NCBI GenBank assembly: GCA_963777605.1
Contig: CAVZRV010000008.1
Span: 416,001 to 480,000 of the forward strand
DNA from: an uncultured Acidobacteriota bacterium
GTDB lineage: Bacteria > Acidobacteriota > UBA6911 > RPQK01 > JAPXNP01
Length of the DNA stretch: 64,000 nucleotides
Reading direction: 5' to 3'
A model generated the notes under the pieces. It made no database searches. It was not told the DNA's origin and saw only the letters and a program-made list of their open reading frames with translations. This document shows positions 3,405 through 41,798 of this stretch, one piece after another. Position 1 is the first letter of the stretch, and the number at the start of each line of letters is the position of its first letter. A program made the position numbers and the translations under genes.

Positions 3405-4049
3405 GTGGACTCTCAAACGGGAGGCCTTCATATCGTGAAAATTAGATGGGTGGCAATTTGCTTCAGTATTTTTTGGGGCACTTCGTTTGTAACCTTGGGT
3501 TTGGCCGGGGAACAAGGGACTGCTGCGCCGGTCTTCGTACAGGAAGCAGGGTCGTCGGCCTACCGGGCGGTGTTCGCACAGTACCTGGCGGTGATCCCTA
3601 ACGAGGCCGATCCGACGCTTCAGGTCGACTGTGCCATCTCAGTGAGCAACGTCTGTAAAGCGCCTTTGCCCCTTTCACTGTTTATTGGAGACAGTGCCGA
3701 AAACGCCCCCACGAGCGGGCGTATCTCTCTGTATTTGTACAACATGGATGGAACGGAGATCGTCTACCAAACCGGTCCTGATTCTCCGGGGGACGGATTG
3801 AATCCGGACGGGAGCCTCGGGTCCGGGCAAACCTGGACGGTGCGTCTCGCGGAGATCCTGGCGGCTGCCGAAGGCAAGGCCGAAGCGGACATCCGGTTTC
3901 GGGGATATGGCTGGGTTCTTTCCGATTTCGACTGCCTGGCGGGAACCTACAGCAACACTGTTTTCGGGGTCGGTTTTACCCAGTCATATGAAATGCTTCC
4001 CGCGATGGGGCAGGGTGGCAATTTCGGCGGAGTCATTATTCCGAAGTGA
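3405..4049 (+). CDS. Secreted hypothetical protein, beta-rich surface-protein-like domain
   Basis: Signal-like N-terminus; AISVSN...LYLYN.DG...LAEIL...FRGYGWVLSDF pattern. Confidence 0.65.
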   Translation: MDSQTGGLHIVKIRWVAICFSIFWGTSFVTLGLAGEQGTAAPVFVQEAGSSAYRAVFAQYLAVIPNEADPTLQVDCAISVSNVCKAPLPLSLFIGDSAENAPTSGRISLYLYNMDGTEIVYQTGPDSPGDGLNPDGSLGSGQTWTVRLAEILAAAEGKAEADIRFRGYGWVLSDFDCLAGTYSNTVFGVGFTQSYEMLPAMGQGGNFGGVIIPK

Positions 4050-4932
4050 CGCTGAATCCCGCCGTCGGCTCGAGGAGACCCTTGCGGAATCCAGCCGACC
4101 AGGCCGTGCACGCAGCCAGGATCAACGGTGATAACAGCAATGATCGAGCGCCGGCTGCGGGGCTGGATCGGGTGACGCGGGCGACGATCGCAGGCGTGCG
4201 ATAGAAGGGGAGCAGCCAGGACGCCAGAGGAAGCCTGGCCAGTCCCGAGCCGGTCATCGACGCCGTTTGCCGGACGTAGCCGGCCCAGAATCCCAGGCCG
4301 GAGAGATGTTCCAGGATCTCCTTCCAGCGAGTTCGGTGATAGTGAGCAATGCCAGCCCTGGACTCGAAATATATTCCCTCCCGGATGCGGTGAAAGAATA
4401 GCCGGTCTTCCGATGCGGGGAGGTTCTCCGGAAAACCTCCTGACGATTCGAAGAACTTCCGGGTGACAAGCAGGTTGGAACTGGACAAAAAGGGACGCGA
4501 TCCCCCGCGGTGTCCCGGCAGGAACTCCGAAAATTCGACCCAGTGGAGCACCCTGGAAGCGGCGGTGGTCGGGTTGGCGTTGTCGATGAATCCGCCGACC
4601 ACGCCGGCGTCTCCGATCCGGGTCAGCCGGGCGCTCATCCGGAGCAGCCAGTCCGGATGGGCAGCCGCGTCCGCGTCGATAAAGGCCAACCGGTCTCCTC
4701 GAGCCAGTTCAGCTCCGAGGTTGCGTGCCGCTCCCGGGTAAAGCCGGACCGCCGAGTGGTGGACCCGAACGGTTGGGAAGTGAACCTTGATCCAGTCGGT
4801 GACCGGATTCTCGGACGAATCGACCACAATCACTTCGAAATCGGGGGCCGGCCGCTGGGAGAAGATCGACTTGAGCGTGAACCCGAGAGTCCGCCGACTC
4901 CGGTAGCAGGGCACGATGAAGGAAACGGTCAT
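4036..4932 (-). CDS. Glycosyltransferase family 2
   Basis: VSFIVPCY, VIVVDS, GAARNLG, FIDAD (DxD), SEDRLF; start placed at MTVSF. Confidence 0.9.
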   Translation of the reverse strand: MTVSFIVPCYRSRRTLGFTLKSIFSQRPAPDFEVIVVDSSENPVTDWIKVHFPTVRVHHSAVRLYPGAARNLGAELARGDRLAFIDADAAAHPDWLLRMSARLTRIGDAGVVGGFIDNANPTTAASRVLHWVEFSEFLPGHRGGSRPFLSSSNLLVTRKFFESSGGFPENLPASEDRLFFHRIREGIYFESRAGIAHYHRTRWKEILEHLSGLGFWAGYVRQTASMTGSGLARLPLASWLLPFYRTPAIVARVTRSSPAAGARSLLLSPLILAACTAWSAGFRKGLLEPTAGFSVTSE

Positions 4933-5001
4933 TGATCTATCCCCTGCTTTGGACCCATCTCCACAAGAGTAATCCCGCAGTGCGGTGATGCGCAAAGGTG
5001 C

Positions 5002-5898
5002 TCATTCGGGCGGTTTTCTGCCACCTTCCCGAAAGCCATCCCTAACCCCGCGGGCGATGCTGAGAAGCCTCGTCCGCCTCAAGGTGACGAGGTTGAAGAC
5101 AAGGCTGGCGAGCAGGGTCGCTGCCCAGGTCATCCACCGGAGCGCACCCGATTGATGCTTACACAGGAACAGCACGGTGTTCTTGCGAATCCAGTAGGTC
5201 TTGAGCCCGCGGCGACCGCGGGTCGAGTGGCCCCCGACGTGAACGGCGCGGGCGGCGGGACAGAAGTAGGCGGGCAGGCCTGCCTGTTCCAACCGGTACA
5301 AAAGGTCGATCTCCTCGTGGTACATGAAAAAGCGCCGGTCGAACCCCCCGATCCTGCGAATGACATCCCGGTGAATCAGCAGAACGGAACCCAGCAGGAG
5401 TTGCACCCTCCGCACGCCTTCCCCGGCCACTTTCTCCGGCTGGTTCTCTCCGTGAAAACGGCAAAGCACGTGAGTGAACGTGATCTCGCCCCAGGCTGCC
5501 TCCAGCCGGTCGGGCAGGTCGGCGCGAATAATCTTCGGCCCGTACACTCCCGGCCCGTGGGCCAGGGCCGCGTCCACGAGCCTGCCGATGGCGTTCTTCT
5601 CAAGGGTCACGTCGTTGTTGAGGACCAGGAAGAAGAGGGGGCCCTCTGCGGGCGCGGCGTTGTAGTCGGCGATCGCCCGGTTGATGGCTTCACCGTAGCC
5701 CAGGTTTTCGCTGTTGAGCAACGTTCTGACTCCCCGTTGCCGGGCGATTTCGACGGACCCGTCTTCGGACGCATTGTCAGCTACCACGACTTCCAGGTCC
5801 GGGTAGTTGGTCTTCATGAGGGCATCGAGAGTCTCTGCCAGAACCTCGGCGCCGTTCCAGTTGACGCAGACCGCTAGCACTTTTGGAGCATTCGGCAT
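5002..5898 (-). CDS. Glycosyltransferase family 2 (WbbL/rhamnosyltransferase-like)
   Basis: VNWN, DNASEDGS, NLGYG..IN, LNND, FFMYHEEIDL. Confidence 0.9.
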   Translation of the reverse strand: MPNAPKVLAVCVNWNGAEVLAETLDALMKTNYPDLEVVVADNASEDGSVEIARQRGVRTLLNSENLGYGEAINRAIADYNAAPAEGPLFFLVLNNDVTLEKNAIGRLVDAALAHGPGVYGPKIIRADLPDRLEAAWGEITFTHVLCRFHGENQPEKVAGEGVRRVQLLLGSVLLIHRDVIRRIGGFDRRFFMYHEEIDLLYRLEQAGLPAYFCPAARAVHVGGHSTRGRRGLKTYWIRKNTVLFLCKHQSGALRWMTWAATLLASLVFNLVTLRRTRLLSIARGVRDGFREGGRKPPE

Positions 5899-6839
5899 AG
5901 GTCACCGGTTCTCAGGGTTTTTGTTCTGCTCAACTTCCTGCGCTTCTGCAGGGCTTTTCCACTGAGAGCCAGGCCGGCGGCGAGTCCGCGCACGAAATCG
6001 ACCGTGAATCCCGCCTTGAGCAGATGAAACAGAAAACTCTTGGCCCACCCGAAAGCGTAAAGTGGGAGGTAGCGAATGGGCCCGTAGGTCAGCATGAGTT
6101 GCCAGCGATTCCGGGTGATCCAGAAGACCCGGTCGGGTGAATAGAATGCCGAATCACCCAACGGATCACGGACCCGGTCTGGATCGGAAGCGGCCTCGAT
6201 GTGGTACACGACCGCCTCGGGCAGGTAGAGACAGCGAAAACCGTGAAGCTGGGCGCGGAGGCTGAGTTCGACGTCTTCCAGGTAGAGGTGGTAGCCCTCG
6301 TCGAAAAGGCCGGCCACGTCGAATAGTTCCCGCCGGTAGAAGGCTGCCCCGGCGCTGGCCCCAAGCACTTCTTCCCGCTGACGAAACGTGTCGGTTCCTT
6401 CGCCAAATCCCCGCTTGTAGGGAAGCCCGAACCGGCTGTAACAGTCTCCTGTGCTGTCGAGCCGGTCCCGCCGGTCATAGTTGACCATCCGCGATGCGAA
6501 GAATCCGTACGCGGGAAGGCTCGTCAGGGCCGCAAGTCCGGACGCGATCCATGCGGGATCGGCTTCCGTGTCGTTGTTGAGCAGTGCGAGGAAAGGAGAA
6601 TCGGTTTCCCTGATGCCCTGGTTGACGGCTCTGGCAAATCCCAGGTTGGTGGAGTTGCGGATCAGCCGGACCTGCGGGTAGCAGGCCTCAATCGTCTCGG
6701 CCGTGCCGTCGGTGGATCCATTGTCGATCACGACCAGGTTGGACTCAACCGTCTGGGCTGCCAGCGAGTCGAGGCAGCGAAGAAGCAACTCGCAGCGGTT
6801 CCAGGTTGGAATGATGACCGATATGGCAGCCTCAGGCAT
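5874..6839 (-). CDS. Glycosyltransferase family 2
   Basis: SVIIPTWN, DNGSTDGT, NLGFARAVNQG, LLNND, YLEDVELSLR; RBS before MPEAA. Confidence 0.9.
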   Translation of the reverse strand: MPEAAISVIIPTWNRCELLLRCLDSLAAQTVESNLVVIDNGSTDGTAETIEACYPQVRLIRNSTNLGFARAVNQGIRETDSPFLALLNNDTEADPAWIASGLAALTSLPAYGFFASRMVNYDRRDRLDSTGDCYSRFGLPYKRGFGEGTDTFRQREEVLGASAGAAFYRRELFDVAGLFDEGYHLYLEDVELSLRAQLHGFRCLYLPEAVVYHIEAASDPDRVRDPLGDSAFYSPDRVFWITRNRWQLMLTYGPIRYLPLYAFGWAKSFLFHLLKAGFTVDFVRGLAAGLALSGKALQKRRKLSRTKTLRTGDLCRMLQKC

Positions 6840-6902
6840 CCATCTTCCTCGGTTGAACGATTCGACCTGACGGGCAAGGCACAATCCTCTGGACGACGGG
6901 TT

Positions 6903-7859
6903 TCACAGTCGGCCTCCACTGCGGCCGCCTGTCGGAGTCTTCCTGCCGCCCTCTTCGCGCCCGCGCCCCAGTCCCCGAAGATAGTAGTAGGTCATGAGGT
7001 CAGGGTAGAACCTCGACAGGTTTGGCCAGCCGGAAGACTCGAAGAGCCTGCAGAGGCACGTCAGGGCCGACATGCGGAAGCGGTCGGCGATCCTGTACTC
7101 TGGAATCCGGTCTATGTTCAGGAACTCGGCCATCTCGGGGTGCTTCATGAAGAAGTTCCAGGCCGATCGACCAACCTTCTCCTGGCGTTGGGCAAAGGAT
7201 CGCAGGTCGGTCGGGTGGTGGTGGAACGCCTTGGCCTCCGGGGCGTAAACCAGCCGCATGTCCCGGTCCCCCAGTCGCAGACTGAGTTCCATGTCTTCCC
7301 AACCGTATTCCTGGAAATCCTCGTCGAATCCTCCCGACTCGAGAAAGAAGCGCCGCGACATCGATATGTTGCTGGTATAGAAAAAGTTGAATGGGATGTC
7401 GTCAGGATCGCTGATGAGCGAAAAGCCGAACTGCCATCCCTGTTCTCCGATGTAGTCCAGAAACCGGGTTCTCCGGATTGAGTCCGGCCACGTGGTGTAC
7501 CCGATGACGACGACCCGGGGACCGGCTCCGTGACGGGAGTGGCACTCTGCGTGTTCTTTGAGGAAACCGGGCGTCGGTACGATGTCGTCACCAAGAAAGA
7601 GAATCTGCTCTCCTCCAGCACTCCTGGTTCCCAGGTTGCGGGCCGCTCCCTGCTTACGATTGGGTTGGAAGAGGTAGTGGAGGGGAACCGGAAAGCCGTC
7701 CTGGAGACCGGCAACGAGAGCCGGTGTCTCGTCCTTCGACCCGTCGTCCACGACGATCACTTCAAACGGCGGAGCCTCCTCCTGTCGGGAAAGAGACCGC
7801 AGGGTCAGGGCGAGGATCTCCGCGCGGTTAAAGGTTGGGATGACGACACTAAAATGCAC
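6903..7859 (-). CDS. Glycosyltransferase family 2
   Basis: SVVIPTFNR, VDDGSKD, GAARNLG, FLGDD, YGWEDMEL; GTG start at 7859. Confidence 0.9.
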   Translation of the reverse strand: MHFSVVIPTFNRAEILALTLRSLSRQEEAPPFEVIVVDDGSKDETPALVAGLQDGFPVPLHYLFQPNRKQGAARNLGTRSAGGEQILFLGDDIVPTPGFLKEHAECHSRHGAGPRVVVIGYTTWPDSIRRTRFLDYIGEQGWQFGFSLISDPDDIPFNFFYTSNISMSRRFFLESGGFDEDFQEYGWEDMELSLRLGDRDMRLVYAPEAKAFHHHPTDLRSFAQRQEKVGRSAWNFFMKHPEMAEFLNIDRIPEYRIADRFRMSALTCLCRLFESSGWPNLSRFYPDLMTYYYLRGLGRGREEGGRKTPTGGRSGGRL

Positions 7860-9174
7860 GCCGAACTGCCTCCCGGGCCTTCTTGATTGCCCTCGCGGGA
7901 CCTTCTGTTTTCCAAATGTTGAAAAACGTTCGAATTCGACCGCTGCGAGGGACATCGGGGGGATGTTTGATGGCCTGGACGCCGGTCCACTGAAGCTGCT
8001 TGAGCTCATCCCTGACTCTGCGGAGCCGGTCCGGTTCGCGGTCGATGAGGTCGTCGGCGATGGCGCGATAGGCTTTCACGTCGAACAGGAGGTCGAGCCC
8101 GAGGCTCTCCAGGAGATCCGATTCGTCCCGGATGTAATCCGGGTCCTCGACGATCGCTCGAAGCGGATCGCCAAACAGTTTGAGGATCTCCCGGTCGGTG
8201 CGCTGCCTGAGCTGCTGGACCGATTTGCGCCGAGCCATCAGCGCGGGGAGGTGGCGGAGAACGTCATCGACAGCGACCAGGTGGTTGAACGCATCGTCCA
8301 AATCATACTCGAGCAGTGGATCTCCGGCCGCGGAACGCTGTTTCGTCGTGGACCAGAGATAATAGGACTCCCTTTCGACCCCGGAGAGGCGAAGGGTCCG
8401 CCTTATCGCCATTACGATTGCGGCGGGCAGGATCCGTCGCAGGTTCTCGTCCTCGTAATTCTTGATGATGGTCATCAACGCATTGCGATGCATCAGGTAG
8501 CGCATCTTCGAGGTGTGGTGGGCCCGAAACGTACCGTGGCCGCGATGATAGCAGACCGACTCCTTGCAGAACCGAACCTGGTGACCGGAGAGCCAAATTC
8601 TCCATCCCAGATCGACATCTTCGTAGATCGCGAAGAAGTCAGGATCGAAGCCGCCCAGGTCGAGGAAGACCCGTCGATCGATCAGCATCGATCCGCCACA
8701 GGGGAACAGGGTTGCATCCTCGGAGCGGACGGAGTCGACGATTGATCCGATGTCCTTTTGCGCGGCGTAGCCGAGGTATTGCAGAGACGACCCGTTGAAG
8801 TCAATCCGGCGGCCGTCCCAGTCGAGGATCCGCGAGGCGACGCATTCAGCTGACTCGAGGGCCAGCAGTCCCTGCGAAAGCCACTCGGGGTGACAGCGCA
8901 TGTCGTTGTTGATAAAGGCGAGAAACCGTCCTCGCGCAGCTTCGGCGGCAACGTTGTTCGGTTCGGCGAAGCCGCGGTTGACCTCGTTCTGAATTACCCG
9001 GACCTGGGGGAAGTTCAGACGTACCCATTCGATGGAGTCGTCTTCGCTTCCGTTGTCGACCAGGATGATTTCGCCTGGGCCGGTCGCAACTACCGAAGGA
9101 AGCAGGTGTTCCAGGTGGTGCCTTCCGTTCCAGTTGATCGTGATGACAGAAATGTCAGAGACGGATGGGGACAT
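7849..9174 (-). CDS. Glycosyltransferase family 2 with C-terminal helical extension
   Basis: INWNG, DNGSEDDS, NRGFAEPNN, FINND, YEDVDLGWR. Confidence 0.9.
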   Translation of the reverse strand: MSPSVSDISVITINWNGRHHLEHLLPSVVATGPGEIILVDNGSEDDSIEWVRLNFPQVRVIQNEVNRGFAEPNNVAAEAARGRFLAFINNDMRCHPEWLSQGLLALESAECVASRILDWDGRRIDFNGSSLQYLGYAAQKDIGSIVDSVRSEDATLFPCGGSMLIDRRVFLDLGGFDPDFFAIYEDVDLGWRIWLSGHQVRFCKESVCYHRGHGTFRAHHTSKMRYLMHRNALMTIIKNYEDENLRRILPAAIVMAIRRTLRLSGVERESYYLWSTTKQRSAAGDPLLEYDLDDAFNHLVAVDDVLRHLPALMARRKSVQQLRQRTDREILKLFGDPLRAIVEDPDYIRDESDLLESLGLDLLFDVKAYRAIADDLIDREPDRLRRVRDELKQLQWTGVQAIKHPPDVPRSGRIRTFFNIWKTEGPARAIKKAREAVRRAF

Positions 9175-10129
9175 CTTTTCTCCGCTCGATCAAGAAATCG
9201 AGATCCTTGTCGCTTCGTTTCCTGGCGCGCTGAATTCTCCGGCGATGACGCAAGGTATCCACTATCTTCAGCAGGTTCCAGGCCAGGTTCCGAACCTGCT
9301 TGAGTTTGCGCCGGGGGCGCTGAGGAAGCAAGAGTAGGGCCGGGATCACCGACGCCAGCCGGGTAAGACTGTAGTTCTTGAGGAGGGACCGGATGTTGTT
9401 GCGTTCCCCCAGTATTTCGCGCCACAGGAACCCGCGGGACTCCCGGGTTGTCCCGCCGAAGTGGTGGTAGACGACCGCTCTTGGAGCCGTGAGAACCTCG
9501 AATCCCTGGATCCAGAACCGCCAGCACAGGTCAACGTCTTCGTGATACATGAAGAAGGTTTCATCGCAGCCTCCCGCTTCGAGCCAGGACGATTTTCGAA
9601 AAAGGGCCGCGGCGGCGGGCGCAAAGAGTACCCGCGCCGGTTCGTCATACTGCCCGCGATCCTCCTCGAACATGCCGCGGTCCCAGGTGTAACCGAGCGA
9701 GTTCATCGAACCCCCGACGCCGTTCAGGACCCGAGGGCGGTCGTGGAGCCTCATTTTTGACGCCACCGCCGCGGCCCGGGGGTGCGCGTCGGCTACCTTG
9801 ATCAGTTCGGCAAGCCAGTCCGGTTCGGTGCGAATATCGGTGTTGAGCAGGACAACGTAAGGTGTTGAAGCGAGACGGACGCCCTGGTTGGCCGCGGCCG
9901 CAAATCCGGCGTTACGTCCCATCCGGTGGAGGCGAACCCAGGGGTATTGTTCGGCGACCAGATCCGGGCTGCCGTCCGAGGAGCCGTTGTCGAGGAACAC
10001 GAACTCGGCCGCTGCTCCCACCTGCAGGCGGAGACCCGAGAACAGTTCCTCAAGGAACGGAAGGCCGTTGTAGTTGATGATTACGACCGTGGCCCGGGGC
10101 TGCGACGGGGATGCCTGGTGGTTACTCAT
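9155..10129 (-). CDS. Glycosyltransferase family 2
   Basis: VIINYNG, DNGSSDGS, NAGFAAAANQG, LLNTD, FMYHEDVDLCWR. Confidence 0.9.
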   Translation of the reverse strand: MSNHQASPSQPRATVVIINYNGLPFLEELFSGLRLQVGAAAEFVFLDNGSSDGSPDLVAEQYPWVRLHRMGRNAGFAAAANQGVRLASTPYVVLLNTDIRTEPDWLAELIKVADAHPRAAAVASKMRLHDRPRVLNGVGGSMNSLGYTWDRGMFEEDRGQYDEPARVLFAPAAAALFRKSSWLEAGGCDETFFMYHEDVDLCWRFWIQGFEVLTAPRAVVYHHFGGTTRESRGFLWREILGERNNIRSLLKNYSLTRLASVIPALLLLPQRPRRKLKQVRNLAWNLLKIVDTLRHRRRIQRARKRSDKDLDFLIERRKDVPIRL

Positions 10130-14568: not shown

Positions 14569-14577
14569 GTATGAACT

Positions 14578-33465: not shown

Positions 33466-34431
33466 TCAAATCGTAGATCTAAAATATTCCACGACGCTTT
33501 GGATGATTTTGTCGAGGTTCATTTTGGGTTCGTAGCCGATCGTCTTGCGGATCTTGGAGAGGTCGGGAACCCGGCGGGGCATGTCTTCGAAGCCGGTCTC
33601 GTAGGCTTCTTCGTAGGGAACCATCTTGATCGGCGACGCCGAGCTGGTTGCCTGAATGACCCTTTCGGCCAGTCCCAGAATGCTGACCTCTTCGTCGTTG
33701 CCGATGTTGAAGACCTCCCCGGTCACTCCCTGAGTCGTGAGCAACTGGCCGATCGCCCGGACAACATCCGAGACGTGGCCGAAGCAGCGTGACTGGGAGC
33801 CGTCGCCGAACACGGTCAGCGGGTCACCCTTCAGGGCCTGAGACACGAAGTTGGGCAGAACCATCCCATAGCGCCCGGTCTGGCGCGGCCCCACGGTATT
33901 GAACAGCCGAATGACCACCACCGGGAGGCCTTTCTCCCGGCAGTATGCCAGGGCCAGGAACTCGTCGATGGCCTTGCTGCAGGCATAGCTCCAGCGCCCT
34001 TTGTGGGTCGGCCCCAGGACCAGGTCGTCATCTTCGGAAAATGGCACCTTGTCCGACTTGCCGTAGACCTCGGAGGTCGAGAAGACGAATACCTGCTTCT
34101 TCTTCTTGGCCGCCAGCTGCAGGATGATCTCGGTTCCCCGAATATTCGTTTCGATGGTCCGGACCGGGCTTTCCACGATCAGCCTTACTCCGACTGCCGC
34201 CGCCGCGTGAAGGACCACGTCGCACAGGTCGACCAGTTCGGCAGTCGCGGGGACATTCATGATCGAGTCGATGCTGTAATTGAAGCGAGGGTGTTCCTTC
34301 AGGTGCAGAATATTTTCGATGCGGCCGGTCGAAAGGTCATCAACGACATAAACGGTGTGGTCTTGCGCGAGCAGGTGTTCAGCCAGATGCGATCCGATGA
34401 AACCCGCCCCCCCGGTGATCAGAATTCTCAT
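33466..34431 (-). CDS. NAD-dependent nucleotide-sugar epimerase/dehydratase (extended SDR)
   Basis: ITGGAGFIGSHL, STSEVYG, YACSK, RLFNTVGPRQ. Confidence 0.92.
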   Translation of the reverse strand: MRILITGGAGFIGSHLAEHLLAQDHTVYVVDDLSTGRIENILHLKEHPRFNYSIDSIMNVPATAELVDLCDVVLHAAAAVGVRLIVESPVRTIETNIRGTEIILQLAAKKKKQVFVFSTSEVYGKSDKVPFSEDDDLVLGPTHKGRWSYACSKAIDEFLALAYCREKGLPVVVIRLFNTVGPRQTGRYGMVLPNFVSQALKGDPLTVFGDGSQSRCFGHVSDVVRAIGQLLTTQGVTGEVFNIGNDEEVSILGLAERVIQATSSASPIKMVPYEEAYETGFEDMPRRVPDLSKIRKTIGYEPKMNLDKIIQSVVEYFRSTI

Positions 34432-34646
34432 TGGTATCCCCTTTATCGATGCCGCCAGCAAGGATAGACGACATCCCGTTCGTCTGCAAAACGTTGCTCC
34501 GGGGGGCGGGGGACGGCAGATTCAATCGGGTTGTCGACGATGCCCGGAGATTTCGATATTTCGGGGCGGAACCCGAAGGTGGGGAAGGCGGTTTTCGAGC
34601 GCGGTGCTATAATTCGGATTTCATCGATATTAGTCGGGGCTCGTAA

Positions 34647-35636
34647 ATGCTAAGCATATCGGTCGTTATACCCCTCTACAACGAAGAAGAATCGCTTCAG
34701 GAACTCTACGACGAGACGGTTCGTGAATTGGAATTGCTCGACGCCCGATTCGAGATCATTTTTATCGACGATGGCAGCACGGATTCGTCCCACCAGATTC
34801 TGAAAGACCTCCAGGGGAACGACCCGCGGATCTCGATCATTCGCTTCCGGCGTAATTTCGGGAAATCTGCCGCGCTTTCCGCGGGTTTTTCCATTGCGGA
34901 AGGCGAAATCATCATCACCATGGATGCCGATCTTCAAGACCAGCCCAGTGAGATGAACAAGTTGATCGAGGTCCTGGAGTCGGGATACGACCTGGTGTCG
35001 GGTTGGAAGCGGGTCCGCCATGACCCGGTCACGAAGCGATGGCCCTCAAAGGTCTTCAATTTTTTCACCTCGGTCCTGACCGGGGTGCCCCTGCACGACA
35101 TGAACTGCGGGTTCAAGGCTTACCGGAGGGAAGTGGTGGAAGAGATCCGGGTCTATGGCGAGATGCACCGCTACATTCCGGTGCTCGCCAGCTACCGCGG
35201 GTTTCGGGTCGGCGAGGTCGTGGTCGAACACCGCAAGCGCGTCTTCGGACGGAGCAAGTACGGGATGGCCCGGTTTTTCGGCGGCTTTTTCGACCTCCTG
35301 ACGGTGATCATGCTGACCCGCTACAATCGAAAGCCGCTGCACGCGTTCGGGGTGTTCGGCGTGCTCATGCTGTCCCTTGGCTTCGCCGTGGAACTTTACC
35401 TGACGGCCGGCTGGTTCTTCGGACGCTGGATCGGCGATCGCCCGGCCCTGATGTTCGGGGTGTTGCTCGTTATTGTCGGTGCCCAGTTCATCTTTTTCGG
35501 TCTCCTGGCTGAAATGATTGCCTACAGCGCGAGGCGCGAGGAGGATTTCTCGATCAGAAAGGTTATTCGCGGCGAACAGCGGTTAGGGGTATCAGGTGCT
35601 TCGACAGGACAGCAGTCGGTTGGCCGCAATCGGTGA
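34647..35636 (+). CDS. Polyprenol-phosphate glycosyltransferase (ArnC/GtrB-like GT2)
   Basis: PLYNEEES, DDGSTD, RNFGKSAAL, MDADLQD, DMNCGFKAYR, two C-terminal TMs. Confidence 0.9.
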   Translation: MLSISVVIPLYNEEESLQELYDETVRELELLDARFEIIFIDDGSTDSSHQILKDLQGNDPRISIIRFRRNFGKSAALSAGFSIAEGEIIITMDADLQDQPSEMNKLIEVLESGYDLVSGWKRVRHDPVTKRWPSKVFNFFTSVLTGVPLHDMNCGFKAYRREVVEEIRVYGEMHRYIPVLASYRGFRVGEVVVEHRKRVFGRSKYGMARFFGGFFDLLTVIMLTRYNRKPLHAFGVFGVLMLSLGFAVELYLTAGWFFGRWIGDRPALMFGVLLVIVGAQFIFFGLLAEMIAYSARREEDFSIRKVIRGEQRLGVSGASTGQQSVGRNR

Positions 35637-35710
35637 CATCCCTGCTCGGAATCCCGGACGGGGAGGCTCGGGGTATCTCGTTCCGGCAACTCGTGTGGCA
35701 TGATGAGGCG

Positions 35711-36886
35711 ATGAGGATCGTTCTGGTCGGCCCGGCGCACCCCCATCGAGGGGGCATCGCCCACTACACGGCATCGCTGTTCAAGTCGCTGCAGTCGGCC
35801 GGGCACTCTGTGACGCTGATCTCATTCAGCCGGCAATACCCCGGCGTCTTCTTCCCGGGGCGGACCCAGAACGACGAGAGCGGTGTCCCGCTCCAGGTGG
35901 AGTGTGAACCGCTGCTCGACTCGATTTCGCCGCAGTCCTGGAAGCGGGTCACGGACCGGATTTGCGAGATCGAGCCGGACGCGGTCGTTTTTCAATGGTG
36001 GCAACCGTTCTTCTCCCTCGCCTACCGTTCGATCGTTCGACGGTTGAAACGGCGTCGGAAGACGCCGGCACTGTTTCTCTGTCACAACATCCTTTCCCAT
36101 CCCGAGGCGGTGATTCCCGGCCGGGAGAGTATCGAACTCCTCTTGACCCGCCTGGCATTTCGTAGTGCCGACGGGTTCCTGGTCCATGCGGACCAGATGA
36201 TTCCGGCGGTCAGGCGTTTGAATCCCGGCGGACTGATCCGAAAGATTTACCACCCGCTCTACGATTTCTACGGGAAGTGGGACACCTGCCCGAATGATCT
36301 CCTGGCGTCGCCTTCGGGCGAACCGACACTCCTCTTTTTCGGAACGATCCGCCGCTACAAGGGGTTGAAGACCCTCCTGGAGGGTTTGGCGGTTCTCCGG
36401 AAATCGATGCGATTCAAAGCCGTGATTGCCGGGGAATTTTATGTTGACCCTGCCCCCTATTATCGACTCGCGCAGCGCCTCGGCTTGGACGACTTCCTGG
36501 TCTGGAAGGACCACTACATTCCGAACGAGGAGGTCCCGGCGCTGTTCAGGGCTGCGGACCTGGTAGTCCTGCCCTATCGAGAGGCGACTCAGAGTGGGGT
36601 GGTGTCGGTCGCCTACCAGTTTGAGGTCCCGGTCGTTGCGACCCAGGTGGGAGGGCTTGCGGAAGTCGTTCGTCAGGGAGAAACCGGTTACCTGGTTCCC
36701 CCCGACGATCCGGATGCTCTTGCTGGAAAGATCCGGCAATACTTCTCCGAAAACAGAAAGGCGGAATTTCGCCGAAATATCGTCTCCTTTCGTGAACGCC
36801 TTACCTGGGGACAGGTCGTTTCTTCGATCGAGGATCTGGTTCTCGAGCTGAACAACCCGGAAGATAACCATGGCACGAACCGCTAG
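35711..36886 (+). CDS. Glycosyltransferase family 4
   Basis: GPAHPHRGGIAHY, FFGTIRRYKG, LPYREATQSGV. Confidence 0.9.
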   Translation: MRIVLVGPAHPHRGGIAHYTASLFKSLQSAGHSVTLISFSRQYPGVFFPGRTQNDESGVPLQVECEPLLDSISPQSWKRVTDRICEIEPDAVVFQWWQPFFSLAYRSIVRRLKRRRKTPALFLCHNILSHPEAVIPGRESIELLLTRLAFRSADGFLVHADQMIPAVRRLNPGGLIRKIYHPLYDFYGKWDTCPNDLLASPSGEPTLLFFGTIRRYKGLKTLLEGLAVLRKSMRFKAVIAGEFYVDPAPYYRLAQRLGLDDFLVWKDHYIPNEEVPALFRAADLVVLPYREATQSGVVSVAYQFEVPVVATQVGGLAEVVRQGETGYLVPPDDPDALAGKIRQYFSENRKAEFRRNIVSFRERLTWGQVVSSIEDLVLELNNPEDNHGTNR

Positions 36887-39037
36887 AACATCCAGGTCGG
36901 CGCGGAAGCAATCACCCGTCGTGTTGAGTCCGAATTACTGGGTGGCTGCCGGCCTGGCTTTCCTCTCGGTGTTGCTCTACGTCAACACCCTGGGCAACGA
37001 CTTTGTCTTTGACGACGTAACCCTGATTTTGCAGAACCCCCAAATCCGAGGTCTCGACTGGTGGGGGATCGTGTTTGACTCCGGGTACCGGCCGGTACGG
37101 ACGCTGACCTATGCACTCAACTTCCTGATGGGGGAGAGAACCCGTTCGGATACCACTTGTTCAGCATTCTGCTGCACGCCGCAAACGTCTTTGTGCTGTA
37201 CCGGTTGCTGTGGTGGCTTACGGCCGGTTCGGGGTTTGCAACCGGCCTTGCGACCCTCTTCTTCGCGATTCATCCGGTTCAGACGGCTGCAGTTGCCTAT
37301 ATCTCCGGGCGCAAGGACCTGCTTGCCGCCCTTTTCATGATGCTCGCGCTGCTCTGTTACCGATCCTACCGGGAACATGCGGGAAAGGCCTACCTGCCCG
37401 CGGTGGCAGCGGCCGGCTGCTTCTTTCTCGCCCTCTTTTCGAAGGAAGTTGCCATTGTCTTTCCCGTCCTGCTGCTCCTCGTGGACGCGCTCAGAGAGGG
37501 GGACCGGGAGGTGCGGGAATCCCGGGAGCGAGTTCCGCTCTGGAGGGCAGCGATACGCGCCGTGAAGTCTGCGCCGATTCTCTACGCGGTTTTCGCCCTG
37601 CTCGCGGCGGTGGGACTTGCCTACGCGCTGTTCGTTGCCAAGGCAAGCCGGATGGAGGGGTACTGGGGGGGAACCCTGGGTGCCGATCTGGGAACCGGTT
37701 TCAAGCTCTTCGTCCACTACGTGAAGATGGTGCTCTTCCCCTATCCGCTCCTTGCCGACTATCTCGGCGGTGTTTTCCCGGTTTCGACCGGATTGCTGGA
37801 GCCGGCCACGCTGGCATCCGGCCTCGGAATGATCGCCTTTGGAGTCGTTGCGGTATGGCTTTTTCGGAAGCTGCCCCTGGTGTCGGTCGGGATGCTCTGG
37901 TTTGGTGCGGCCATCGCGCCCGTGCTCCAGTTCATTCCGTTTCATGAGCTCGCTGCGGATCACTTCCTGTATGTCCCGATGATCGGAGCTTCCCTGGTGC
38001 TTTCGGGCTTTCTCCTTCACCTGAAACGGAACCAGGCAGCAAGAACGGCGGCAATGGTCGTCATCCTTGCGCTGTCGTGCGTGTTCGGTGTGATGGTCAT
38101 CGACCGCAACGGGGACTGGAAGGACAAGCAGACGCTCTGGGAAGCGACCTTGCGGAAGGCTCCCGCATCTTACCGGGCTAACGCTAATTTGGGACAGGTG
38201 TATTTCAATGCCGGTCGTTTCGAGGAGGGAATCCGGCTGACTCGCAAGAGCGCCGAACTCTCCCCTGATCGCGCACTTCCCTACAGCAACCTGGGGGCCA
38301 TGTACTACACGATGGCTCAACACGCCCGGCAGTCGGGAGACATGGCCCGGGCGGAGCAGCTCCAGTTCGAAGCCCAGGACTTCTTCAACAAGGCCCTGGA
38401 ACTGGAAGACAACAACCCGTTTACTTACAGCAACCTGGGCAACACCTACAAGGAACTCGCGTTGATCCTGGACGGCCGCGGCCGCAACGAGCAGGCGGCA
38501 GAATCCCGGCGCCAGGCCGCCGACCTGTACCGCAAGGCGCTGGCACTTCCCGATCGACGCCTTGACGTGCAGCGGATCTGGTACAACTTCGGCCTGCTTT
38601 ACGTGGATGCCGGCTCCTATGCGGAAGGCCTTGATTACCTGCGTCGTTACGTGTCCCAGTTTCCTGCGGAACCCGGGGGCAACTATTGGATGGGATACAC
38701 GCTGTCGAAACTCGGTCGTTACGATCGGGCAATACCTCTGTTCAAGAGAGCGCTGCAATCAAAGGCGACCGTCGAGAGCTGGCAGCAGTTGGCCCAGGCC
38801 TACCAGGAGTCGGGCCGGTATCCGGAGGCAGCCCAGGCCTACCGGCAATTGGTCAGCCTCTCGCCGACCGCGCAGAACTTTTATAATCTGGGGCAGTCGC
38901 TTCTTCGGGCCGGACAGAATTCCCCGGCCAGGGCCGCCTTTGAAAAGGTCCTCGAGTTGGACCCGTGGGGCGAATGGGGGACCAGGAGTCGCAGTGCCCT
39001 GAGCCGGACAGGAGTCACGGTGAAGCGGGTCAACTAA
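36870..39037 (+). CDS. TMTC-like GT-C membrane glycosyltransferase with C-terminal TPR array; -1 frameshift in G run at ~37130-37134
   Basis: FVFDD..LI..NP, YRPV..LTYALN, HL.SILLH, FAIHPVQTAAVAYISGRKDLL, ALFSKE, ADHFLYVP, RNGDW...LW, many TPRs; halves join as MGGENPFGYH. Confidence 0.8.
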
Positions 39038-39085: not shown

Positions 39086-39799
39086 ATGTACAAGGGTAAC
39101 GAAATTACCGTTGTGATCCCCTGTCTGAATGAAGCACAGGGCATCGGGAAAGTACTCTCCCGGATTCCGGATTTCGTCGACGAAGTAATCGTCGTGGACA
39201 ACGACTCAACCGACGGGACAGCGGATATCGCCCGGCAGCTGGGTGCCCGGGTGATCCACGAGAATGTTCGCGGATACGGCCGGGCCTACAAGACCGGCCT
39301 GTTTCATGCAAAAGGGGACATCATTGTGACGCTCGACGGGGACCACTCCTATCCCGTCGATGCCCTGTCCTACCTCGTTGAAGCGCTACTCCATTCGCGA
39401 GTGGGGTTCGTTTCTGCCTCCCGATTTCCGATCACCGACCCCGAGTCCATGTCGCGGATCAACCTCTGGGGTAACCGCCTGCTCAGTCTCGCGACCTCGA
39501 TGCTCTTCCTGCGCTGGGTGAGGGATTCACAGTCAGGGATGTGGATATTCTTCAAGGATACGCTCTCGAAAATGGACCTGGTGAGCGACGGGATGGCCTT
39601 CTCGGAAGAAATCAAGCTCGAGGCCATGCTCAAACCCGACATCGGTTTCAGGGAAATCCCGATTCGTTACTCCAACCGTGCCGGGGAGAAGAAGTTGCGG
39701 CCCTGGCGAGACGGGTGGCGCAACTTGCTCTTTCTCTTCCGTAAACGGCTGCAGGGCAGCCGGCGGCGGGGCGTTCAAACCCAGACCCTGGAGAGGTGA
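39086..39799 (+). CDS. DPM1-like polyprenol-phosphate sugar synthase (GT2)
   Basis: PCLNEA, VDNDSTDGT, GYGRAY, LDGDHSY, ASRF, DSQSGM, Y..R.GEKK. Confidence 0.85.
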   Translation: MYKGNEITVVIPCLNEAQGIGKVLSRIPDFVDEVIVVDNDSTDGTADIARQLGARVIHENVRGYGRAYKTGLFHAKGDIIVTLDGDHSYPVDALSYLVEALLHSRVGFVSASRFPITDPESMSRINLWGNRLLSLATSMLFLRWVRDSQSGMWIFFKDTLSKMDLVSDGMAFSEEIKLEAMLKPDIGFREIPIRYSNRAGEKKLRPWRDGWRNLLFLFRKRLQGSRRRGVQTQTLER

Positions 39800-40758
39800 A
39801 TTCGATGATTTGTCCGGTCTGTGAGCATCCTGACTGCCGCCAGCTTTGGGCACTGGGAGATCGTTTCTTCGGAACCACCGAGGAGACCTTTCCTCTTTTC
39901 GAGTGCACCGGGTGCGGGCTGCTATTCCAGGACGCTTCAGCCGTCCTGTCGAGGCTGCCGAGCTTTTATCCCGAGGGCTATTGGTGGCGCCCGGGAACCG
40001 GAATAGGGGCCCAGTTCGAGCGCCGCTATCGGGAGTGGATGGTGAAGCACGATCACGTCCGGACCATCCGCCACTGGTTTCCCGCTTCGAACGCGTTTTC
40101 ACTGCTGGATATTGGATGCGGTACCGGCCTCTTCGTCTCTCTTGCCGGGAGGGAAGGATTCCAGGCCGCCGGATTGGAGAGTTCCCCGGAGGCTGTCCGG
40201 GTCGCCCACGACGGCGGAGTCGACTCGGTAACCTGTGGTGACGAAAACCTGCTGATCGAGCAGGGTCGTCAGTTCGACCTGATCACGCTGTTCCATGTCC
40301 TGGAACATGTCCCGGAGCCGTTCAAATATCTCCGTAGAATCCAGAAACTGCTCAGGAAGCCGGGACACCTGGTCGTCCAGGTACCGAACCGGTCGAGCTA
40401 TCAGGCACGGCTGTTCGGCCGGCGGTGGTACGGCCTGGATTGCCCCCGTCACCTGAACAATTTCACCGAGTACGCTCTGCTGGCGGTGCTGGGGCGGGCC
40501 GGCTTCAGAATCCGGCGGGTTCGGCGCTATTCGCTCCGGGACAACGCCGCGGCAATGGTCTCCAGCCTGGTTCCGGCCCTCGACCCGATGTCGTCGCGGA
40601 TTCTCGCTCGGGCGCGAAACGGCAGGGACCCGTCCCTTCAGCTTCTACGAGGGGGAGTCTACTTCGGACTCGTCCAGTTCGCACAACCCCTGGCCTGGCT
40701 CGAAGCTAAGCTCGGCCGGGGCGGGACAATCATGGTGCATGCCACCTGGGACGCTTAG
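39796..40758 (+). CDS. Class I SAM methyltransferase with N-terminal Cys (Zn-ribbon) motif
   Basis: CPVC...CTGCG, LLDIGCGTG, FHVLEH, PRHL. Confidence 0.88.
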   Translation: MNSMICPVCEHPDCRQLWALGDRFFGTTEETFPLFECTGCGLLFQDASAVLSRLPSFYPEGYWWRPGTGIGAQFERRYREWMVKHDHVRTIRHWFPASNAFSLLDIGCGTGLFVSLAGREGFQAAGLESSPEAVRVAHDGGVDSVTCGDENLLIEQGRQFDLITLFHVLEHVPEPFKYLRRIQKLLRKPGHLVVQVPNRSSYQARLFGRRWYGLDCPRHLNNFTEYALLAVLGRAGFRIRRVRRYSLRDNAAAMVSSLVPALDPMSSRILARARNGRDPSLQLLRGGVYFGLVQFAQPLAWLEAKLGRGGTIMVHATWDA

Positions 40759-40769
40759 GAAGTCGGCAC

Positions 40770-41798
40770 ATGAATGGTGAGGGGCTGGTCTCCGTCCTGA
40801 TCGTCAATCATGACCGGGCTGATCTCCTCCGGGAGTGTATAAACTCGGTGCTGCTCCAGGACTACCCTGCGATCGAGGTGGTCGTGGTGGACAACGGCTC
40901 GACCGACGGCAGCCGCGACGTCGTTCGGCGACTGAAGGATCCCCGGGTTCACCTGGTTGAGCTGCCCCGAAATTTCGGCTTTGCAGGTGGCTGCAACCGT
41001 GGATTTCGGGAGTGCAGCGGGGACTGGGTTGCGCTGATCAACAACGACGCGATTGCCGAACCGGACTGGATTTCGTCGATGCTTGCCACCCTGAAGAAAC
41101 ATCCCCGCGCGGGGATGTGTGCGAGCCGAATCCTCTTCTACCAGAGCGAGGTCATCGACAAGGCCGGCCACCTGATTTTCTGGGACGGGCAGAACCGGGG
41201 TCGGGGAACCGGGGAAACCGATTCGGAGGCGTTTGGGAGGGAGGAAGAAGCGCTCTTCCCGGACGGTTGCGCCGCCATCTACCGGCGGGAACTGATTTCC
41301 CAGGTGGAGGGGTTCGACGAAGACTTTTTCGCCTATGCCGACGATGCTGATCTCGGGCTGCGTGCCCGGCTCCTGGGCTGGGAGTGCGTCTATTGTCCCG
41401 GCGCCCTCGTCTATCACCGCCATTCGGCGACCTCGGGGAGGTTCTCTCCGGAGAAGATCTACCTGGTCGAGCGCAACCGCGCCTGGCTGGCGATCAAGAC
41501 CTTTCCCTGGGTGCTGCTTCTCGCCAACCCGTTCTTCACTGTCTATCGGTGGGCCTGGAACCTGGCCGCCTTTTCCTCCGGCCGGGGGGCCGCCGGCAAC
41601 TTTCGGAGGGAGCGTTCGGCCTGGGTGCTGGCGGGGGCGATCCTGCGAGCCTTCCGGGACGGTCTGCTGGGACTGCCGAAAATGCTGGCGAAGCGACGAA
41701 AGATCAGGCGCCGCCGGGTCCTCTCCGACCGCGACTTCATCCGCCTCCTCTGGCGCTACCGAATCACCGCCCGAACGCTGGCCTGGAAGGACTTCTGA
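40770..41798 (+). CDS. Glycosyltransferase family 2
   Basis: SVLIVN, DNGSTDGS, NFGFAGGCNRG, LINND, FAYADDADLG. Confidence 0.9.
   Translation: MNGEGLVSVLIVNHDRADLLRECINSVLLQDYPAIEVVVVDNGSTDGSRDVVRRLKDPRVHLVELPRNFGFAGGCNRGFRECSGDWVALINNDAIAEPDWISSMLATLKKHPRAGMCASRILFYQSEVIDKAGHLIFWDGQNRGRGTGETDSEAFGREEEALFPDGCAAIYRRELISQVEGFDEDFFAYADDADLGLRARLLGWECVYCPGALVYHRHSATSGRFSPEKIYLVERNRAWLAIKTFPWVLLLANPFFTVYRWAWNLAAFSSGRGAAGNFRRERSAWVLAGAILRAFRDGLLGLPKMLAKRRKIRRRRVLSDRDFIRLLWRYRITARTLAWKDF

Follow-up and report, generated by a model that had tools for sequence, protein, structure and literature searches.

Introduction

A locus in which glycosyltransferase genes surround the gene of a secreted protein raises the question of where the assembled glycan ends up, on the protein itself, on lipopolysaccharide (LPS) or elsewhere in the cell envelope. 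Here we analyze such a locus in an uncultured bacterium of the phylum Acidobacteriota (GenBank assembly GCA_963777605.1, contig CAVZRV010000008.1). The window, by which we mean the whole stretch of 64,000 nucleotides that was analyzed (G000:C8:416001-480000), contains the locus at positions 3405 to 41798. Its two central genes encode a 637-aa acidic secreted protein, designated SLP637, and a ligase of the Wzy_C family that ends in tetratricopeptide repeats (TPR), hereafter called the TPR ligase; around them lie genes for glycosyltransferases, methyltransferases and the permease Wzm of an ATP-binding cassette (ABC) transporter. A preliminary description, made from the sequence alone, had proposed that the locus glycosylates surface-layer (S-layer) or other surface proteins with two different enzymes, following the logic of the slg cluster of Geobacillus stearothermophilus.

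In our analysis, the region is most likely a single locus for the assembly of an envelope glycan, conserved within one order of Acidobacteriota, with a cassette of secreted surface proteins in its middle. We assign a probability of about one half to the reading in which the TPR ligase glycosylates SLP637 and/or the Ser/Thr-rich PKD proteins of the cassette with an ABC-exported polymer. The own genome of the window (G000; other G numbers denote the relatives compared) comprises 6.7 Mb in 53 contigs with a completeness of 96.7%, and the named relatives of the window proteins are all metagenome-assembled Acidobacteriota. Counts over 38 refer to the genomes of the window's class, and counts over 401 to the sampled genomes of the phylum.

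A secreted acidic protein family in the middle of the locus

The features on which the argument turns are the following.

12416..12444, plus strand: promoter-like site upstream of the SLP637 gene (consensus scan; one found versus 1.2 expected from shuffles, weak alone)
12566..14479, plus strand: SLP637, 637-aa acidic secreted protein (signal peptide read from the sequence; no family)
14527..14572, plus strand: intrinsic-terminator-like hairpin with a 16-pair stem and a T7 tail, directly 3' of the SLP637 gene (sequence scan)
26042..27874, plus strand: the TPR ligase, a 610-aa Wzy_C-family protein with the WaaL fold, an extra 13th helix and C-terminal TPR (Wzy_C E 3e-13 plus TPR families)

SLP637 has a typical Sec signal peptide and an excess of acidic residues (11.8% Asp plus Glu versus 3.9% Lys plus Arg), and it gave no Pfam, NCBIfam or PDB sequence match. 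AlphaFold2 prediction from 73 aligned homologs gave a confident model (pLDDT 87.3, pTM 0.87) that comprises two domains and is all-beta. Foldseek found no match to this model in the PDB at E<=1e-3, and the ESM Atlas search returned unnamed clusters only; the best hit of a wide VIA search was the small beta-sandwich TM1070 (1nc7; Z 5.8, 110 residues aligned, root-mean-square deviation 2.9), a level that the tool rates as common. The family comprises 120 proteins in 90% clusters, and 189 cluster representatives were collected at E<=0.001 among 1.84 billion. Within the phylum, homologs are encoded in 19 of the 401 genomes, all from the window's own order save one, which belongs to the same class.

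Nineteen more distant and longer representatives were scanned for additional domains, which were PD40 in four, a leucine-rich repeat (LRR), Calx-beta, a weak fn3, a weak DUF5719 and NB-ARC in one each, the remaining ten being family-less. Enzymatic domains were thus absent from 18 of the 19, the exception being the NB-ARC/NACHT NTPase. The latter protein (P0306, 793 aa) joins a STAND NTPase of this type to a C-terminal match to the first SLP637 domain (E 1.7e-13), an odd combination for an extracellular module. In G159, nine full-length SLP637 paralogs with 80-95% identity are organized in arrays of three and six (G159:C1:382245-399495 and 1774586-1780910). These arrays resemble the multi-copy S-layer gene families that serve antigenic variation in Campylobacter fetus.

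The SLP637 gene is preceded by a strong Shine-Dalgarno sequence, AAGGAGG, at approximately 12549-12555. Among 20 public sequencing runs that contain part of 12300-16100, 15 are RNA libraries, and contigs of 80-97% likeness from three RNA runs, which come from three different studies, span 12549-14500, while the gene that follows SLP637, which encodes a BNR-like protein, is barely touched by them (one 191-base contig) although it lies inside the search stretch. These contigs are a weak hint, not a measurement, of high SLP637 expression in relatives; parts of 8001-28000 without RNA contigs were not taken as silence.

Because of its signal peptide, acidity, lack of an enzyme family or fold, paralog arrays in G159, non-enzymatic fusions and own terminator, SLP637 is most likely an abundant structural surface protein and a candidate S-layer subunit. 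The S-layer reading is reasonable but tentative: the protein appears secreted, is acidic and carries no enzyme domain, and its abundance is only hinted at. Full-text literature searching gave no description of an Acidobacteriota S-layer among the matches listed.

An accessory Wzy_C ligase with a C-terminal TPR domain

The AlphaFold2 model of the TPR ligase (pLDDT 88.8, pTM 0.90) shows, in addition to the WaaL helices, another long helix (residues 452-497) and, at residues 503-608, the TPR domain, so that this protein combines the Wzy_C domain with the WaaL fold. Its N-terminus is basic, and a large loop at residues 291-356 holds the Wzy_C hit; helix parity and the basic N-terminus together place this loop and the TPR domain on the same, presumably periplasmic, side of the modeled protein. 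WaaL proteins have about 400 aa, 12 transmembrane helices and no extra domain, a build from which the TPR ligase departs in its 610 aa, its 13th helix and its TPR. Both a TPR family and Wzy_C were found in all but 3 of 79 homologs, among the matches listed. Sequence searches of SLP637, the TPR ligase and the GT-C protein described below against solved structures returned TPR or chance matches only.

Sequence and fold do not decide the acceptor of the TPR ligase. BLAST-type analysis cannot separate WaaL from the O-oligosaccharyltransferase group, as stated in part of the text that describes the PglL model (PMC3643930), and our own profile and structure searches, which had been suggested for separating WaaL from PglL/WsaB-type enzymes, identified Wzy_C, TPR and the WaaL fold and left these types inseparable. 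A predicted complex between the TPR region of the ligase (residues 478-610) and mature SLP637 (residues 22-637) scored 0.00 in two runs, which is evidence neither way.

The distribution of Wzy_C proteins is more informative. The own genome encodes five of them, and one, a 416-aa protein on contig C11 without TPR, lies between a DegT aminotransferase gene and a gene of glycosyltransferase family 4 (GT4). The same cluster (G000:C11:128901-133400) also encodes Wzm, a Wzt (Wzt_C E 5e-33) and a Kdo/WaaP-family kinase, and the GT4 carries DUF1972. Orthologs of the 416-aa protein, one per genome and 415-530 aa in length, occur in 35 of the 38 class genomes. Because of this near-universal spread and its Wzm, Wzt and WaaP-like kinase neighbors, the 416-aa paralog is the better candidate for an LPS ligase, and it is likely to be the LPS O-antigen ligase of these bacteria. 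It thus takes the place of the conserved single housekeeping ligase accompanied by LPS core genes, a place that the TPR ligase does not fill.

The TPR ligase is present in 18 of 38 class genomes. It occurs together with SLP637 in 14 of them, and both are missing from 16; SLP637 without the TPR ligase is found in four genomes (three weak partial hits in genus g9 and a truncated copy in G385), as is the reverse combination (strong ligase hits in G309 and G393, weak ones in G270 and G377). The ligase gene is located 2-13 kb from the SLP637 gene in the window and in seven relatives, including G369, and the window has no LPS core genes; closeness to a candidate target outside LPS loci is the arrangement associated with PglL-type enzymes. 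The TPR ligase is therefore not the conserved housekeeping Wzy_C of the class (18 versus 35 of 38 genomes) and tracks SLP637 instead, an outcome in favor of the preliminary description. On these comparative grounds we regard it as an accessory ligase and a candidate O-oligosaccharyltransferase.

Conservation of the neighborhood

To describe the genomic context, ten SLP637 loci from nine genomes, each with 40 kb of surrounding sequence, were compared with the window proteins by tblastn. A double methyltransferase gene and six genes of glycosyltransferase family 2 (GT2) divergently adjoin SLP637 in seven of the ten loci (G100, G336, G033, G353, G318, G124 and array b of G159). In G385, where SLP637 is truncated, the methyltransferase/GT2 block is 5.4 kb away, with transposases between; the block is absent at the second G159 array and at the SLP637 locus of G015. 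Hit coordinates add G076, G049 and G345 as linked, G049 being an unpublished genome that is counted here only. In G369, the most distant case, from another family of the class, the order is a ligase-like gene, Wzm, SLP637, two open reading frames (ORFs) and then GT2 genes, and G230 has a decayed version of the cluster with SLP637 still inside.

Overall, in 13 of the 14 genomes with an SLP637 hit at E<=1e-30, the distance from this gene to the GT2 block, or to the methyltransferase gene beside it, does not exceed approximately 6 kb, so the proposed linkage of the surface-protein genes to the glycosyltransferase block holds in relatives. In the exception, G015, SLP637 lies elsewhere, between transposases, and the priming transferase, two GT2, a GT4, the TPR ligase, Wzm and the methyltransferase are contiguous without the cassette. 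It follows that the two transferase halves belong to a single pathway, into which the protein cassette is inserted. The methyltransferase block is more widely spread (21 of 38 class genomes) than the TPR ligase.

Predicted polymer building, priming and export

Scans with Pfam and NCBIfam gave an inventory of 11 GT2 and 3 GT4 genes between 3405 and 41798. The GT2 genes are six consecutive ones at 4036-10306, followed by 30092-30979, 30976-31943, 34647-35636, 39086-39799 and 40770-41798; the GT4 genes are at 27871-29031, 29056-30081 and 35633-36886. Every component of the earlier inventory (these transferases, a priming glycosyltransferase, Wzm, two methyltransferases, the Wzy_C protein with TPR and a TMTC-like protein) was recovered at the same position. 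Equally, no match to the Wzz, Wzc, Wza, Kps export or lipid A/core families was found in the window by these scans, in line with the reported absence of Wzz, Wzc, Wza and lipid A core genes. The genes assigned to polymer assembly and export are as follows.

4036..10306, minus strand: six consecutive GT2 without a predicted transmembrane segment (Pfam Glycos_transf_2, E 1e-16 to 1e-29)
10122..12233, minus strand: 703-aa soluble protein that combines two class-I methyltransferase domains with a basic C-terminal tail (Pfam/NCBIfam)
25108..25899, minus strand: Wzm, an ABC-2 permease without an adjacent ATPase gene (ABC2_membrane E 7e-21; sub-threshold Wzm/KpsM NCBIfam matches)
27871..30081, plus strand: two GT4 (Glycos_transf_1, Glyco_transf_4)
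30092..30979, minus strand: GT2 (Pfam)
30976..31943, minus strand: GT2 split into an N-terminal part at 31572-31943 and a C-terminal part at 30976-31575 (Pfam/NCBIfam)
31973..33428, plus strand: WbaP-type polyprenyl-phosphate hexose-1-phosphate transferase split into 31973-33088 and 32922-33428 (CoA_binding_3 in the N part, Bac_transf E 6e-57 in the C part)

The six consecutive GT2, whose order is kept throughout in eight of the ten loci, presumably form the polymer-building block. NCBIfam matches of the GT2 and GT4 genes are generic and sub-threshold only, and we therefore propose no sugar. The 703-aa protein, with Methyltransf_11 at residues 76-164, a second domain at residues 383-487 that also matches MftM, and a tail that resembles a coiled coil when the sequence is judged by eye, has orthologs at E<=1e-120 in the 21 class genomes mentioned above and is presumed to be the enzyme that caps or terminates the chain. 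The primer is of the WbaP type by CoA_binding_3, Bac_transf and TIGR03025, although its gene is frameshifted in the assembly.

No Wzt was detected among the window proteins by the Pfam and NCBIfam scans, so that Wzm stands alone here, whereas slg-type clusters hold both. In G159, a Wzt with ABC_tran and Wzt_C directly follows the Wzm ortholog, and the two genes are likewise adjacent in G230 and in five genomes of genus g9. The best match of the G159 protein in the own genome is an ABC_tran and Wzt_C protein at G000:C7:482521-483729 (52% identity over residues 18-402), which has no Wzm beside it. Three other Wzm/Wzt pairs are encoded in the own genome, on C11, C23 and C35.

Other proteins of the cassette

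Five genes for secreted proteins sit between the two transferase blocks: SLP637 and the following four.

14578..16017, plus strand: 479-aa secreted BNR/sialidase-like beta-propeller candidate (BNR_2 E 8e-7, below the Pfam cut-off)
16014..19160, plus strand: 1048-aa secreted PKD/Ig-like protein, Ser plus Thr 24% (K319L-like_PKD E 1e-11)
19173..20429, plus strand: 418-aa secreted protein without a family (no Pfam match)
21354..24792, plus strand: paralog of the PKD protein, ORFs 21354-23282 and 23155-24792 (tblastn of the 1048-aa paralog)

Homologs of the BNR-like protein come after SLP637 in G336, G318 and G230; the 1048-aa PKD protein is kept in the cassette of G336, G033 and G353, and the 418-aa protein has cassette matches by tblastn in these three genomes and in G124. 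The two pieces of the PKD paralog contain 23% and 19% Ser plus Thr, compared with a window-protein mean of 13%, so the Ser/Thr-rich Ig-like proteins of the preliminary description are indeed present, as two PKD/Ig-like proteins. Neither the comparison of the SLP637 profile with the other window proteins nor BLASTP among the cassette proteins revealed a shared anchoring domain.

A gene-free gap of approximately 900 nt before the PKD paralog contains a GC-rich direct repeat of 37 nt (20723-20759 and 21134-21170, 84% identity). In one DNA run, contig depth is raised at 20674-21340 and 24676-25342, and positions 20715 and 24959 are connected, on opposite strands, within a single contig. No inverted repeat that would account for this joint was detected when 20300-25300 was searched for repeats.

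A second module with a TMTC-like glycosyltransferase

The right-hand part of the locus contains a second set of genes.

33466..34461, minus strand: NAD-dependent sugar-nucleotide dehydratase/decarboxylase, nearest to UDP-xylose/UDP-4-keto-pentose synthase (UXS/ArnA-C-like), below cut-off (Pfam/NCBIfam)
34647..35636, plus strand: ArnC/GtrB-like polyprenyl-phosphate sugar synthase with two C-terminal transmembrane segments (NF007986 E 7e-62, 209 bits versus a cut-off of 529)
35633..36886, plus strand: GT4 (Pfam)
36870..39037, plus strand: TMTC/PMT-like GT-C membrane glycosyltransferase with C-terminal TPR, its first ~92 codons (36870-37145) in another frame (TPR families, motifs)
39086..39799, plus strand: DPM1/AglJ-like polyprenyl-phosphate hexose synthase of the GT2 family (TIGR04182 E 7e-39 and NF041391 E 3e-32, both below cut-off)
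39796..40758, plus strand: 320-aa class-I methyltransferase (Methyltransf_23 E 2e-28)
40770..41798, plus strand: GT2, the last gene of the locus (Pfam)

By its family assignments this module is a candidate polyprenyl-phosphate-sugar route ending in the GT-C enzyme. The motifs FVFDD and GYRP follow the first hydrophobic segment in the upstream frame (36870-37145), SKEV comes later in the main frame, and 16 TPR families match residues ~330-605. A combination of DD, YRP and KE motifs with C-terminal TPR is the signature of TMTC proteins, and ArnT and GtrC are without TPR. The three motifs of the window protein correspond to those given for TMTC1-4 in part of a published account, namely DD in the first extracytoplasmic loop, (SHKS)YRP and KET (PMC7801869). 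Matches to the Pfam models PMT_2 and TMTC_DUF1736 were not obtained for the window GT-C, the best value (E 0.11) being on the G318 ortholog, and the ESM Atlas neighbors of the G318 membrane domain include clusters with PMT_2 (17-18% of members) and TMTC_DUF1736 (25%). Orthologs of the GT-C protein with TPR occur in 27 of 38 class genomes, some without SLP637; being far more widespread than SLP637, the enzyme is not specific to it.

Envelope-protein glycosylation and the addition of side-branches to the exported glycan are about equally plausible functions of the GT-C enzyme when judged by analogy. The directly adjacent DPM1-like synthase mirrors the Ppm1/Pmt and DPM1/PMT pairs of protein O-mannosylation and, like the motifs and TPR, points to a TMTC-type enzyme rather than to one that adds single sugars from polyprenyl-phosphate donors to the exported glycan or to lipid A/core, as GtrC, WsfD and ArnT do. 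We nevertheless give such decoration a chance only a little short of even, since the ArnC-like synthase and the UXS/ArnA-C-like enzyme lie next to the GT-C gene, the enzyme is present in genomes without SLP637, and it stays by the Wzm/glycosyltransferase block in the g9 genomes G088 and G170. A precedent is the lipid-linked glucose route of WsfH and WsfD that branches the S-layer glycan of Paenibacillus alvei, as described in an excerpt of a review (PMC2943079). Thus, of the second protein-glycosylating enzyme that had been suggested, the polyprenyl-phosphate-sugar route with its GT-C stands, and its tie to the surface protein does not, as it could equally branch the glycan.

Locus borders and frameshifts

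The locus is flanked and bordered by the following features.

37..1157, minus strand: extracytoplasmic function (ECF) sigma factor at 552-1157 and zf-HC2 anti-sigma factor at 37-555 (Pfam Sigma70_r2/r4_2, zf-HC2)
3405..4049, plus strand: 214-aa protein with one N-terminal hydrophobic segment at residues 16-34 (no Pfam/NCBIfam match)
41845..41917, plus strand: tRNA gene, the right-hand border of the locus (Rfam RF00005, 75.7 bits)

The sigma/anti-sigma pair adjoins the GT2 block in G100, G336, G033, G353, G159b and G230. For the 214-aa protein, tblastn matches lie beside the first GT2 in G100, G336, G033, G353, G385, G318 and G159b, and a diverged second copy (approximately 30% identity) occurs past the sigma/anti-sigma pair in G100, G336, G033 and G353. 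Beyond the tRNA border, GC content falls from approximately 0.60 to 0.55 at about 42107, and a response regulator, two PAS histidine kinases (one of them hybrid) and an HDOD response regulator are encoded at 42107-48827.

Four genes are broken by frameshifts within 14 kb. In the PKD paralog the frame changes at a G4 run near 23189-23192, and tblastn of the 1048-aa paralog switches frame between 23186 and 23212; in the GT2 at 30976-31943 a C6 run near 31622-31627 lies close to the change. For the priming transferase the shift is near 32898-32905, and TIGR03025 profile positions 14-269 and 277-443 fall in two frames. In the GT-C gene the change is at a G5 run (37130-37134), which leaves the first ~92 codons with the catalytic motifs in the ORF 36870-37340. 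In G318, the orthologous GT2 and priming transferase genes each have one frame and the GT-C is a single open frame of 735 aa; GT-C orthologs elsewhere have 720-780 aa, versus 626 aa in the window. The breaks are probably assembly errors in genes that are intact in the organism, because three of the four coincide with homopolymers of G or C, as is typical of consensus errors in long-read assemblies. The SLP637 gene of G336 likewise has internal stops; together with the frameshifts, these suggest consensus errors across this assembly group, not pseudogenes. No public sequencing run was nearly identical to the stretch, the best share being 0.11.

The proposed pathway and its acceptor

Family membership suggests the following route, in which the location of Wzt is observed and the WaaL fold of the ligase is taken from the model. 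The WbaP-type transferase would prime undecaprenyl phosphate, GT4 and GT2 enzymes would add an adaptor, and the six soluble GT2 would extend the polymer in the cytoplasm on undecaprenyl pyrophosphate, the double methyltransferase adding the cap. Export of the polymer would then fall to Wzm and to the Wzt encoded on C7, whose Wzt_C would read the cap. Cap recognition by Wzt_C is the mechanism known from Escherichia coli O9a, and a Geobacillus model follows the same lines. SLP637 and the PKD proteins are expected to pass through the periplasm because all have Sec signal peptides, and there, ahead of arrival at the surface, SLP637 and/or the Ser/Thr-rich PKD proteins may receive the chain en bloc from the TPR ligase. 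In lineages without the TPR ligase, the same polymer would presumably go to lipid A-core via the universal ligase. The second module (the UXS-like, ArnC-like and DPM1-like enzymes and the GT-C with TPR), an order-wide one, may use polyprenyl-phosphate donors to add single sugars in the periplasm to proteins or as side-branches of the glycan.

Several observations weigh against glycosylation of SLP637, and a number of them favor the main alternative, a possible but less likely one, in which lipid A-core receives the methyl-capped chain from the TPR ligase as a second LPS-linked O-polysaccharide, bound in turn by an unglycosylated SLP637 layer in the manner of RsaA. SLP637 is not Ser/Thr-rich (14.1% Ser plus Thr versus the window-protein mean of 13.2%) and has no Ser/Thr-rich stretches, and the low-confidence loops of its model contain no obvious low-complexity acceptor regions. 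Its proposed standing as a highly expressed secreted protein is supported as to secretion by the signal peptide; high expression is weakly backed by the Shine-Dalgarno sequence, the promoter-like site, the terminator and the RNA contigs, and its codon index of 0.669, third of 29 non-reference genes (reference EF-Tu, L1, L10, L7/L12 and NusG), is not distinctive. Should the four frameshifts be real, the locus would be decaying in this genome. The only solved relative found for the ligase model by Foldseek is WaaL (7TPG; E 1.5e-7, TM 0.67 on the target, 15% identity), and PglL_A (PF15864) does not match the ligase at E<=1, although PilO is also without this motif according to a passage by the authors of the PglL model (PMC3643930). 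The ligase genes of G309 and G393, both strong hits, occur without an SLP637 hit. In the five complete genomes of genus g9, the methyltransferase gene and adjacent Wzm-Wzt are present without the TPR ligase or a clear SLP637 (in G088 and G170 with ArnC-like and GT4 genes alongside, and in G088 with the GT-C too), so that the glycan there has another acceptor. The Wzt on C7 sits among lipid A/core genes; its neighbors are genes for Lip_A_acyltrans, PhyH, a DegT aminotransferase, a GT2 and a GT9 heptosyltransferase. Linkage itself would be explained without protein glycosylation, since a protein layer needs its anchor, and Gram-negative S-layers are described as anchored through LPS in part of a published text (PMC6978808). 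Finally, the compared genomes are kin, and co-occurrence counts therefore overstate their independence; the pattern nevertheless covers seven families.

Other evidence turns against an LPS role of the TPR ligase. The separate TPR-less Wzy_C protein of 35 genomes, with its WaaP-like kinase and its own Wzm and Wzt, is the more natural LPS ligase, and one WaaL usually serves several O-polysaccharides, so that a second ligase would not be required. The extra helix and the periplasmic TPR, a protein-binding module, would have no role in a lipid A-core ligase, and the TPR ligase follows SLP637 more closely than the glycosyltransferase block does. A different explanation, that of a general envelope-polysaccharide island for an exopolysaccharide or lipid-linked glycan in which SLP637 is a glycan-binding, nutrient-binding or adhesive protein carried along, is improbable in our view. 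It draws on the richness of the own genome in glycan loci (five Wzy_C genes and four Wzm/Wzt-type systems), on the tRNA gene at the border, on the displaced SLP637 gene of G015 between transposases and on a resemblance of the first SLP637 domain to small beta-sandwiches, including some carbohydrate-binding modules, at Z 2-5.8 only. However, the embedding of SLP637 is kept in 13 of 14 genomes and in seven families, which makes chance carriage hard to defend; the window has no Wza, Wzc or Kps export genes; the position of the ligase next to Wzm speaks for transfer to an acceptor and not for release; and the nine tandem paralogs of G159 and the RNA contigs point to an abundant structural product. 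Protein glycosylation by the TPR ligase thus remains our preferred reading, at the probability given above. Of the combined proposal of en bloc transfer of an ABC-exported glycan and a separate monosaccharide route onto surface proteins, the logic, the linkage and the non-housekeeping ligase are supported, whereas the occurrence of the glycosyltransferase block, Wzm and Wzt in a genus without the ligase and without a clear SLP637 counts against it. The fullest version, in which SLP637 is the first Acidobacteriota S-layer family, is glycosylated by a dedicated WaaL-fold ligase that recruits it via helix and TPR, receives a methyl-capped polymer from that ligase and is accompanied by a TMTC-type O-glycosyltransferase, is put forward only tentatively.

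Comparison with known glycosylation systems

The slg clusters of Geobacillus stearothermophilus NRS 2004/3a and Paenibacillus alvei CCM 2051T (WsaP/WsfP, WsaE, Wzm/Wzt, WsaB/WsfB and WsfH/WsfD), as outlined in the review excerpt, share with the locus a WbaP-type primer with an ABC transporter, a combination typical of S-layer glycan clusters, a methyltransferase beside the transferases that build the polymer, a Wzt whose C-domain binds glycan, a Wzy_C protein associated with TPR, a lipid-linked monosaccharide side route and linkage to a surface-protein gene (PMC2943079). The same source reports that WsfB and PglL, both O-transferases, have TPR at the C-terminus, whereas WsaB has a separate TPR protein as its neighbor. 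The Geobacillus logic that the preliminary description had recognized thus extends to the primer, the ABC transporter, the methyltransferase, Wzt with Wzt_C, and Wzy_C with TPR, and falls short in that Wzt lies outside the window. The locus further differs from the slg clusters in its diderm host, in a separate two-domain methyltransferase that is not fused to transferases, in an undescribed family of candidate target protein and in a TMTC-like GT-C with TPR.

The same comparison can be made for individual components. With WaaL (7TPG), the TPR ligase shares the Wzy_C domain and the fold; it is larger (610 versus approximately 400 aa), has an extra helix and TPR, and the Kdo/WaaP-family core kinase lies beside the TPR-less C11 paralog, not beside the TPR ligase. 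PglL/PilO-type enzymes resemble it in belonging to the Wzy_C family, in the position of the gene near a candidate target and in the C-terminal TPR reported for PglL in the above review (PMC2943079), and 21 of 31 PglL homologs are close to a candidate target in the data of Schulz et al., as given in the excerpt (PMC3643930). The TPR ligase is unlike them in giving no PglL_A match, in that its donor would be a long polymer delivered by an ABC transporter, in place of a short unit that is flipped, and in a candidate target that is not a pilin. The GT-C protein shares with TMTC1-4 and with PMT/Pmt and their partners DPM1/Ppm1 the DD after the first helix, YRP, K-E, the C-terminal TPR and the adjacent DPM1-like synthase, and differs in having no significant PMT_2 or TMTC_DUF1736 match and in the ArnC-like and UXS-like genes alongside.

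RsaA of Caulobacter crescentus is exported by type I secretion, has no signal peptide and is not glycosylated, unlike SLP637 with its Sec signal peptide in a locus that carries an accessory TPR ligase. The two are alike insofar as RsaA is a diderm major surface protein that depends on a dedicated O-polysaccharide, as described in part of the cited text (PMC6978808). Diderm S-layer proteins can bear methylated O-glycans, the examples in an excerpted report being Kustd1514 of Kuenenia stuttgartiensis and the S-layer of Tannerella forsythia; these glycans are short oligosaccharides without repeats, the S-layer proteins are unrelated to SLP637, and in the excerpted text no biosynthetic cluster of this kind is described for Kuenenia (PMC5088730). 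A pathway of the S-layer-glycan type in a diderm phylum, centered on an undescribed protein family, is partly supported by the gene content and linkage of the locus.

Significance

Acidobacteriota are among the most abundant bacteria of soils and sediments, and their cell surface is almost undescribed. The locus offers three targets: a fold-orphan secreted family that extends across a lineage, the glycan locus around it and an accessory ligase distinct from the housekeeping ligase. The pair of Wzy_C proteins, of which one is plain and universal and the other is an accessory enzyme that has TPR and is linked to a protein, is a natural system for telling LPS ligases from protein O-transferases. 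As judged from its genes, the locus is a good candidate for the first glycosylated surface layer in Acidobacteriota, and a glycosylated SLP637 S-layer, if confirmed, would represent a diderm version of the Gram-positive S-layer glycan pathway.

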